From Candidatus Aenigmatarchaeota archaeon (GTDB taxonomy: Archaea; Aenigmatarchaeota; Aenigmatarchaeia; GW2011-AR5; JAGGXF01): DNA of 10,044 nt. The stretch is taken from assembly GCA_029932645.1 (NCBI GenBank), contig JAOZPR010000003.1, positions 17,987-28,030 on the forward strand, in the 5' to 3' direction. The position numbers and the translations under genes were made by a program. A model generated the notes under the pieces. It did no database searches, was not told the origin of the DNA, and saw only the letters and a list, made by a program, of their open reading frames with translations. Below, piece after piece: positions 1 through 1,211 of the stretch (position 1 is the stretch's first letter; each line of letters begins with the position of its first letter).

Positions 1-44
1 AGTTTTATATTCATGAGAGTTATAATTAAATAAAGGTGATTGAA

Positions 45-137
45 ATTCCTTGCGGTAAGAAAAGAAAGAGAAAGAAGATGAAGAAGCATAAGCTGAAGAA
101 GAAAAAGAAGAAAATGCGACATAGAAAGAAGAAATAG
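45..137 (+). CDS. Small basic protein, putative bS22/mS38 (COX24/AURKAIP1-like) small-subunit ribosomal protein
   Basis: Manual translation: (I/M)PCGKKRKRKKMKKHKLKKKKKKMRHRKKK*. From memory it resembles bacterial MP(S/C)GKKRKRHK...HKRKK...RHKKK proteins and the COX24 KKMKKHKL motif. SD GGTGA at 35-39; TATA-like TTTTATAT at 3-10; T-rich tract after the stop. Start is ATT at 45 or in-frame GTG at 36. Confidence 0.75.
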   Translation: MPCGKKRKRKKMKKHKLKKKKKKMRHRKKK

Positions 138-167
138 TTTTCTTTTAATGTGGTGGGTGTAGTTAGC

Positions 168-1211
168 GTGAAGTGTGATTTTAGACGTAGGTTACGTTCT
201 GTTAGAAAAATTATAGAAGAGAAGAAGCTTGACGGCATTCTGCTGTTTTCCCGGCCTTCGTCCAGCGAATCGTGGACAACAACACCGAACATATTCTATT
301 TTACCGGTTTTTATGATAATTGGTTTACTGCTCTGCTTCTGGAGAAAAATAAAAAAACAATATTCACGTCTTCTGATAAAAAAACCTTATCAGGAATTAA
401 AGTTGAACCGTGGAAAAAGCATCTGGAGAATTTAAAGAGGCTGAAGGGGAAACGGGTTGGTATAGAAAAACACACGGCTTTCGGTATAGTTAGAAAACTG
501 AAACGGTTTGGTGTAAAAATCGTGTTGCTGAAAGATGAACTGGAAGATATAAGAATGATTAAAGATGCTGAAGAAATAAAAAAGATAAAGAAGGCGTCGA
601 CAGCCACTAAAAAAATATTTGATGACTTGTTGAAACAAAACATAAAACGCGCATTCAAAACAGAAGCTGATGTTAAAAAATGGTTGGTTAAAAAAATATT
701 TGAGAATGAAATGACAACAAGCTTTGCGCCGCTTGTTGCATCTGGCCCGCATTCTGCGATAATCCATGCAAGGCCCGGACAGCAAAAGCTGAAAGACCAT
801 CTGCTGCTGGATTTTGGCTGTTGTTTCAAGCATTATCGGTCAGACTTTTCCAGAACTGTTTTGCTGCGCAAAAACAAAAAACTGGAAAAGATAATAAGCA
901 TTGTTCAAGAAGCCCAAAAAGAAATTATTGCTGCATTGGGACCTGGCGTGTCCTGCAAGGTTCTTCTTGATTTGGCCAGAAAAAAATTCAAAAAGGCCGG
1001 ATTGGCAAAAAAATCTTTCTTAAATTATCATGCACTTGGACACGGGCTTGGCCTAGAGATACACGAACCTCCCCGAATAGACGAAAAGGCAACACTAAAA
1101 AAGAATATGGTCTTCACGATAGAACCTGCTGTTTATGACAAAAGGCTCGGCGGCGTGCGCATCGAAGACACCATCCTGCTGAAAAATAAGGCTAAAATAC
1201 TGACAAAATGA
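168..1211 (+). CDS. Xaa-Pro aminopeptidase/prolidase, peptidase family M24B
   Basis: Metal-ligand motifs LLLDFG, YRSDFSRT, GHGLGLEIHE, FTIEP and GVRIEDT, plus an N-terminal creatinase-like domain (NIFYFTGF). GTG at 168 was chosen because GGGTGT precedes it; the ORF is open from 150. Confidence 0.92.
   Translation: MKCDFRRRLRSVRKIIEEKKLDGILLFSRPSSSESWTTTPNIFYFTGFYDNWFTALLLEKNKKTIFTSSDKKTLSGIKVEPWKKHLENLKRLKGKRVGIEKHTAFGIVRKLKRFGVKIVLLKDELEDIRMIKDAEEIKKIKKASTATKKIFDDLLKQNIKRAFKTEADVKKWLVKKIFENEMTTSFAPLVASGPHSAIIHARPGQQKLKDHLLLDFGCCFKHYRSDFSRTVLLRKNKKLEKIISIVQEAQKEIIAALGPGVSCKVLLDLARKKFKKAGLAKKSFLNYHALGHGLGLEIHEPPRIDEKATLKKNMVFTIEPAVYDKRLGGVRIEDTILLKNKAKILTK

Follow-up and report, generated by a model that had tools for sequence, protein, structure and literature searches.

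The locus and its host genome

A very small, strongly basic protein is encoded at the beginning of the window, the 10,044-nucleotide stretch of DNA that was analysed (G000:C26:17987-28030, from an assembly of 718,593 bases in 43 contigs, 89% complete). The open reading frame proposed for positions 36..137 by an earlier, sequence-only reading was found to be present, and the 29 residues quoted for it all lie inside a 33-residue, GTG-started frame of the plus strand. The TATA-like box, Shine-Dalgarno (SD) sequence and T-rich tail of its own that had been ascribed to this frame can all be read directly in the window sequence. The TATA-like box TTTTATAT (3..10, plus strand), a presumed promoter element, lies 24 nt 5′ of the putative SD sequence GGTGAT (35..40, plus strand), which precedes an ATT codon by 4 nt. 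The preferred, bS22-type coding sequence (45..137, plus strand) consists of 30 codons and a TAG stop, reading ATT (45-47), then CCT TGC GGT, with TAG at 135-137, whereas the alternative coding sequence of 33 codons (36..137, plus strand) starts at a GTG in frame with the ATT at 45. Counted from the ATT, the peptide has 30 residues, 21 of them (70%) Lys or Arg. The T-rich tract TTTTCTTTT (138..146, plus strand) stands immediately 3′ of the stop codon and is a likely archaeal terminator. The same TTTTATAT was found 23-24 nt 5′ of the SD sequence in the related genomes G001 and G018, which also carry a T-rich tract in the same place after the stop (TTTTCTT and ATTTTTT, respectively). The gene of the window is stand-alone and monocistronic.

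Directly 5′ of the window, a scaffold gap of 100 N separates the gene from an upstream M29 aminopeptidase gene. A 9245-base metagenome contig from an independent run (X2) covers window positions 1-600 with 2 differences and reaches about 7.9 kb 5′ of the window, beyond the start of the 100-N gap; a 19,985-base contig of another study covers the same region with ten differences. As for the M24 peptidase gene that follows (window 150-1211), comparison with G001 indicates that it probably starts not at the first GTG (150) but at the one at 168, which is preceded by GGTGGGTG at 153-160.

The host genome is archaeal. The window also encodes an archaeal Hjc Holliday-junction resolvase, a Toprim protein of archaeal DnaG length, an HMG-CoA synthase and a thiolase; elsewhere in the genome eS1 (S3Ae) is present, and bS6, which was looked for in the same genome, is absent. 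The NurA and Cbf5/TruB-PUA genes that adjoin the gene in other lineages also agree with an archaeal host. The 16S gene is absent from the G000 assembly, and the SD comparison below uses that of G001, a genome of the same genus, which was assigned to the archaeal SSU model by clan competition. Genome sizes across the phylum range from 0.4 to 1.9 Mb, and such small genomes would fit DPANN-type archaea. In three 16S genes (L173, L174 and L175, from G345, G002 and G248, respectively) the sequence past the conserved AAGTCGTAA near the 3′ end differs from the usual end seen in G001, and the matches are 1506-1863 bases long against a model of 1478 positions; this may reflect insertions or introns in the rRNA genes.

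Relationship to bS22

The identity of the peptide was evaluated with a profile made of five archaeal copies only (A1). Searched against the whole PDB at E ≤ 10, this profile retrieved four sequences, of which three are bS22 chains of solved bacterial ribosomes: 8fmw_V (bS22; E 3.6e-6, 28 of 28 columns), 9i5v_10 ('AURKAIP1/COX24 domain-containing protein'; E 6.7e-5) and 7jil_5 ('ribosomal protein S22'; E 1.6e-4). All three alignments are gapless and full length; the fourth sequence is unrelated (E 2.2), and no further ribosomal chain was matched. We take the 8fmw ribosome to be from Borreliella and the 9i5v ribosome to be from Porphyromonas. The third chain, 7jil_5, is the bS22 of Flavobacterium johnsoniae (PMC12123416). 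These matches support the bS22-type identity that had been suggested for the peptide. A second profile (A2), built from 33 sequences (23 archaeal copies and 10 bacterial bS22 relatives), gave E values of 2.3e-11, 4.1e-11 and 2.4e-10 for the three bS22 chains and 0.0059 for an mS38 chain; since A2 contains bacterial bS22 relatives, only its mS38 match is additional evidence. The earlier description of the peptide as a bacterial or mitochondrial type was thus borne out on the bS22 side by the A1 matches, whereas the link to mS38/COX24 is weak, an mS38 chain being reached with A2 only.

None of the 33 rows of A2 departs from K6, H15, K16, K19 or R25, and at least 90% of them retain P2, G4, R7, K8, K11 and K18. 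C3 is replaced by S or N, M12 by I, V or N, and H26 by Y in some rows; across all genomes, the replacement of H26 by Y or F occurs in one family. The P-C/S-G, M and H positions, which had been predicted to be shared with bS22 and conserved among relatives, are therefore kept across archaeal and bacterial copies: H15 is present in every row and P2 and G4 in 90% or more of them, while C3, M12 and H26 vary in some rows. Family f36 carries RY or RF near the C-terminus where others have RH. In four loci (L159, L160, L161 and L162, from G305, G308, G304 and G264, respectively) the N-terminus reads MPNLRKRRRKK or MSNLRKKRRKK instead of carrying the PCG motif, and in some genomes one or two residues are inserted after the Met (MCPCG, MPPCG, MAPCG, MCPPCG). 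One locus (L138, G351:C2:423948-425261) contains two copies about 750 bases apart, one with an altered C-terminus (...MTPSKKVMALTKYHYF) and the other with an altered N-terminus, and one of the two may be decaying.

A polybasic helix of 30 residues has a low information content, and a match caused by Lys/Arg bias alone was an obvious concern of the sequence-only reading. When 20 distinct bacterial copies, taken from the matches listed, were scored with an HMM built from 23 distinct archaeal peptides, they reached 50.0-64.5 bits, and none of 4000 composition-preserving shuffles of the bacterial copies attained the lowest of these scores (maximum 41.1 bits); the bacterial copies had been retrieved with motifs of the archaeal alignment, and the comparison shows order beyond composition and is not an independent sample. 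AlphaFold predicted a single helix over residues 4-29 of the window peptide, with a mean pLDDT of 88.6. Among ESM Atlas features, the COX24_C-carrying set made up 22 of the 30 nearest clusters, with top scores of 0.95-0.96, which serves as a lead only.

The curated models were less responsive. In the COX24/AURKAIP1 profile search that had been proposed as a check, the gathering cut-off of 23 bits was reached neither by the window protein nor by its relatives: Pfam COX24_C (PF08213) gave no match to the window protein at E ≤ 10, two of three archaeal relatives scored 9.2-9.3 bits (E 1.4-1.5), and of six bacterial copies of this bS22 type four scored 7.6-12.2 bits (E 0.18-4.9) and two nothing. 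Similarly, NCBIfam returned no family for two forms of the window protein and no model for six bacterial and three archaeal copies. As COX24_C and NCBIfam fail equally on bacterial copies of the bS22 type represented by the chains of solved ribosomes, the misses of the window protein are uninformative. For eL41, Pfam PF05162 had no match in G000 at E ≤ 10, with a model that stays below its cut-off even in archaeal control genomes; over the 371 genomes of the phylum this insensitive model gave 22 sub-threshold partial matches, most of them in longer open frames. The other Lys/Arg-rich small frames of G000, 50 in number, include none that is eL41-like. Neither A1 nor A2 matched an eL41/eS32 chain at E ≤ 10 in the PDB, which includes archaeal and eukaryotic ribosomes.

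Bacterial genes of the MPCG type were encountered in at least 24 loci (L009-L032), from Marinimicrobia, Omnitrophota, Planctomycetales, Fidelibacterota, Treponema and Bacteroidota MAGs, a range wider than the phyla named in the available portions of the literature on bS22. A further subgroup (P0013-P0018 and P0020) combines the archaeal-like core KKHKLKKRRK with the tail RDRHKKKLR; it is not among the 110 positive genomes of the phylum described below, and a metagenome search with P0013 gave six loci, with all four recovered peptides bacterial-type.

Distribution and selection

In a single-protein search of 60 relatives, copies were found in four, with identities of 91% (G001), 81% (G002), 74% (G034) and 67% (G018). 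With A1, at a genome cut-off of E ≤ 0.01, matches were obtained in 110 of the 371 genomes of the window's phylum (~30%), and presence across the phylum tracks clades. The gene was most frequent in the order of G345, where it was found in 82 of 91 genomes and in 22 of the 23 high-quality ones, with family counts of 23/23 (f39), 5/5 (f35), 13/14 (f36) and 39/47 (f38); all 17 genomes of family f40 were also positive. In the window's own order the gene is sparse (f1, 2/2 plus G000; f7, 2/9; f2, 1/44), and A1 matched no genome of the large families f23 (0/70), f20 (0/23), f9 (0/21) and f24 (0/19). The broader profile A2, applied at E ≤ 10 to the 70 genomes of f23, gave three noise matches inside long open reading frames and no real one. 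With 261 of 371 genomes lacking a match, the protein is not required by every ribosome of the phylum.

The open reading frame at 36-137 is a genuine protein-coding gene, and the purifying selection acting on it is strong. In pairwise comparisons of 105 genomes (5460 pairs) the mean pN was 0.123 against a mean pS of 0.927, a saturated value, for a pN/pS of about 0.13. Additionally, all eight variants found within the coding sequence in independent metagenome contigs are synonymous third positions (59, 62, 77, 83, 86, 98, 107 and 119). The gene neighbours in other lineages encode a HAD hydrolase, ArsA, Cbf5/TruB-PUA, an M29 peptidase and NurA, and in the synteny comparison the neighbourhood was conserved among close relatives only. 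Of 23 gene calls in databases most are over-extended, and the ten clusters checked were all unnamed or labelled 'hypothetical protein'.

Start codons and expression signals

Of the 110 positive genomes, 109 yielded the gene, and for these the codon at the Met1 position was tabulated. It was found to be ATG in 66 genomes (27 of which have an SD-like motif and 39 of which lack one), ATG with an insertion of one or two residues in 11, ATT in 15, ATA in 10, ATC in 1, GTG in 5 and TTG in 1. The initiator position is thus non-ATG in 32 of 109 genomes (Ile codons in 26, GTG or TTG in 6), and all 32 have an SD-like motif; in total, 69 of the 109 genomes carry such a motif ahead of the gene, and none of the 40 SD-less loci is non-ATG. 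Loci with weak starts include L034, L036, L037, L039, L042, L045, L048, L051, L056, L059, L097 and L143. Where Val occupies the Met1 position its codon is GTG in five of five cases, though GTG accounts for 21% of Val codons in G000; in two of these five loci an ATG lies one or two codons upstream. In five Ile-codon loci from three genera (G285, G311, G314, G316 and G317) the frame contains no ATG, GTG or TTG between the Ile codon and the stop upstream of it, and their codons 2-11 differ synonymously, including CGN/AGR swaps for Arg, which indicates that this stretch is translated.

Among the 32 non-ATG loci, 26, the window being one of them, have an in-frame GTG inside GGTGAT, three codons upstream. 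The 3′ end of the 16S of G001 is GGATCACCTCCT, which makes GGTGAT a perfect SD sequence; in G000, GGTGA followed by ATG 4, 5 or 6 nt on opens frames of at least 80 codons 39, 23 and 20 times, respectively (82 in total). When the gene is aligned with the MPCG... copies of other families and of bacteria, the ATT at 45 falls on their ATG, and it appears more likely as the start in the window than the GTG at 36. TTTAWA lies a median of 22 nt from the SD sequence (n = 20), and in SD-less loci it lies just as far from the ATG (median 22 nt, n = 18); this equal spacing suggests that the transcript probably begins at the SD sequence itself, with an mRNA leader that is probably only ~10 nt long. A TATA-like box about 22 nt before the ATG suggests leaderless mRNAs for the SD-less loci. 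In family f40 the SD sequence is absent from 17 of 17 loci (L040, L089, L090, L098, L100, L109, L115, L117, L118, L121, L123, L134, L137, L150, L151, L153 and L154), and the other families mix leaderless forms with forms that have a ~10-nt leader starting at the SD sequence. The weak initiator codons could be a regulatory device.

Proposed function and origin

The window peptide is considered, with a probability of about 0.8, to be a homologue of the bS22-type small-subunit protein, placed by homology in the decoding-centre pocket. It would occupy the cavity that 16S helices h27, h44 and h45 enclose in the small subunit, close to the decoding centre, and would form an intersubunit bridge there, its basic helix touching h44/h45 and the large subunit; the cavity would be the one occupied by eL41/eS32 in other archaea and eukaryotes. 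Ribosome binding of the archaeal peptide is expected by homology with the systems described in the available portions of the cited papers. There, bS22 sits between h27, h44 and h45 at the eL41 site, and archaeal eL41 fills the h27/h44/h45 cavity, touching P-site-linked modified bases (PMC7005279). The 30-residue bS22 of Porphyromonas and Flavobacterium forms an extra bridge via h44, h45 and H70 (PMC12123416), and mycobacterial bS22 shapes the aminoglycoside pocket and is dispensable in M. smegmatis (PMC10081302). Free bS22 was also reported to be antimicrobial, and free bS22 and eL41 to inhibit growth and translation in vitro (PMC10085706). As the aminoglycoside site and the decoding centre both adjoin the pocket, whatever occupies it would be relevant to start-codon selection and subunit joining.

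The most substantial alternative is that the peptide is a vertically inherited eL41/eS32 that has drifted, with the same function and another origin. In its favour, bS22, mS38 and eL41 share the pocket and a universal family 'uS22', uniting bS22 and eL41, has been proposed (PMC10085706, PMC10081302); moreover, neither G000 nor any of the 371 genomes showed a separate eL41. The latter point is diminished by the insensitivity of the eL41 search, which stays below its cut-off even in archaeal controls, and the profiles themselves speak for the bacterial family, with three bS22 chains matched over their full length and no eL41/eS32 chain at E ≤ 10. The N-terminus MPCGRKRK, identical to that of bacterial copies, the lack of an eL41 chain match and the patchy distribution in the phylum (110 of 371 genomes, 0 of 70 in f23) favour a bacterial-type sequence over a drifted eL41, which is accordingly regarded as rather unlikely. 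Whether the gene was actually acquired from bacteria stands at roughly even odds on the sequences at hand, with 30 columns too few for a reliable tree and a search that covered the window's phylum among archaea.

An activity exercised mainly off the ribosome, as a nucleic-acid chaperone, in DNA compaction or as a secreted antimicrobial, is improbable for this conserved polybasic peptide. The in vitro inhibition by free bS22 and eL41 (PMC10085706) and the lack of a conserved ribosomal neighbourhood around the gene (HAD hydrolase, ArsA, Cbf5, M29 peptidase, NurA) are in keeping with such an activity; nevertheless, the match to bS22 is positional (H15, K16, K19 and R25 invariant) and specific within the PDB, and the presence of the gene as a single copy throughout nearly all of one order (82 of 91 genomes) is what would be expected of a core component. 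Hardly any weight is given to a chance frame in an A-rich spacer or to a translated leader regulating the downstream M24 peptidase. AAG/AAA-rich DNA does yield many Lys-rich frames (the 50 of G000) and the peptidase gene begins within ~30 nt, but the peptide is kept while its neighbours change between families, its amino acids are retained at saturated synonymous sites, and the gene has its own T-rich tail.

Beyond the bS22-type assignment, a wider scenario can be drawn, which is speculative and quite unlikely as a whole: a bacterial gene would have crossed to small-genome archaea, ousted eL41/eS32 and become core in whole orders, its expression being curbed in many lineages in a feedback loop by AUU, AUA or GUG starts behind a 5′-terminal SD sequence. 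The protein would lie next to the P site, and ribosomes devoid of it would read weak start codons differently, a loop comparable to that of infC, which in bacteria is autoregulated via its AUU start.

On its sequence, the peptide is a bS22-type addition to a known family, which the available portions of the literature on bS22 do not report from archaea. Those portions treat bS22 as bacterial and mitochondrial and archaea as using eL41/eS32 at the site. No report of bS22 in an archaeon was found in what was available of the literature naming both, and no paper was found naming both bS22 and DPANN. The occurrence of a bS22-type gene in almost all genomes of an archaeal order would represent either a cross-domain transfer of a ribosomal gene or a sequence bridge for 'uS22', in organisms whose translation has scarcely been studied. 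The sampled gene calls overlook the gene or get its extent wrong, and it would therefore escape censuses of ribosomal proteins in small-genome archaea.

Comparison with known systems

Compared with eL41/eS32 (PF05162), the window protein is likewise small and basic, and the expected binding site is shared (PMC7005279, PMC11724365), but it matches neither the Pfam model nor the PDB chains of eL41/eS32. Actinobacterial bS22 and mS38 resemble it in consisting of a polybasic helix bound in the same pocket, according to the available portions of the papers (PMC7005279, PMC10081302, PMC10085706), and the archaeal relatives show weak matches to COX24_C positions 5-30 in the same register; A1, however, reaches neither mS38 nor actinobacterial bS22 chains at E ≤ 10. 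The closest likeness is to the bS22 chains of the MPCG/MPSG type, which, like the archaeal peptide, have 28-30 residues and align with it gaplessly over the full length. Common to these chains and the archaeal copies are M/I1, P2, C/S/N3, G4, K/R5, K6, R7, K8, H15, K16, K18, K19, R25, H26 and a basic tail, and the N-terminus MPCGRKRK of archaeal copies recurs unchanged in bacterial ones. Both are encoded by stand-alone tiny genes that are missed or left unnamed in annotation (PMC12123416, in its available portions). The differences lie in the core, which reads K-K-H-K-L-K-K-R-R-K-K-M-R-H in the archaeal clade and x-T-H-K-R-K-K-R-L-R-x-N-R-H in the ten bacterial rows of A2, in an identity of 53-63% between archaeal and bacterial copies, in the host, which is archaeal and not bacterial, and in the start codon, which is often non-ATG in the archaeal copies and ATG in 24 of 24 bacterial loci among the matches listed.
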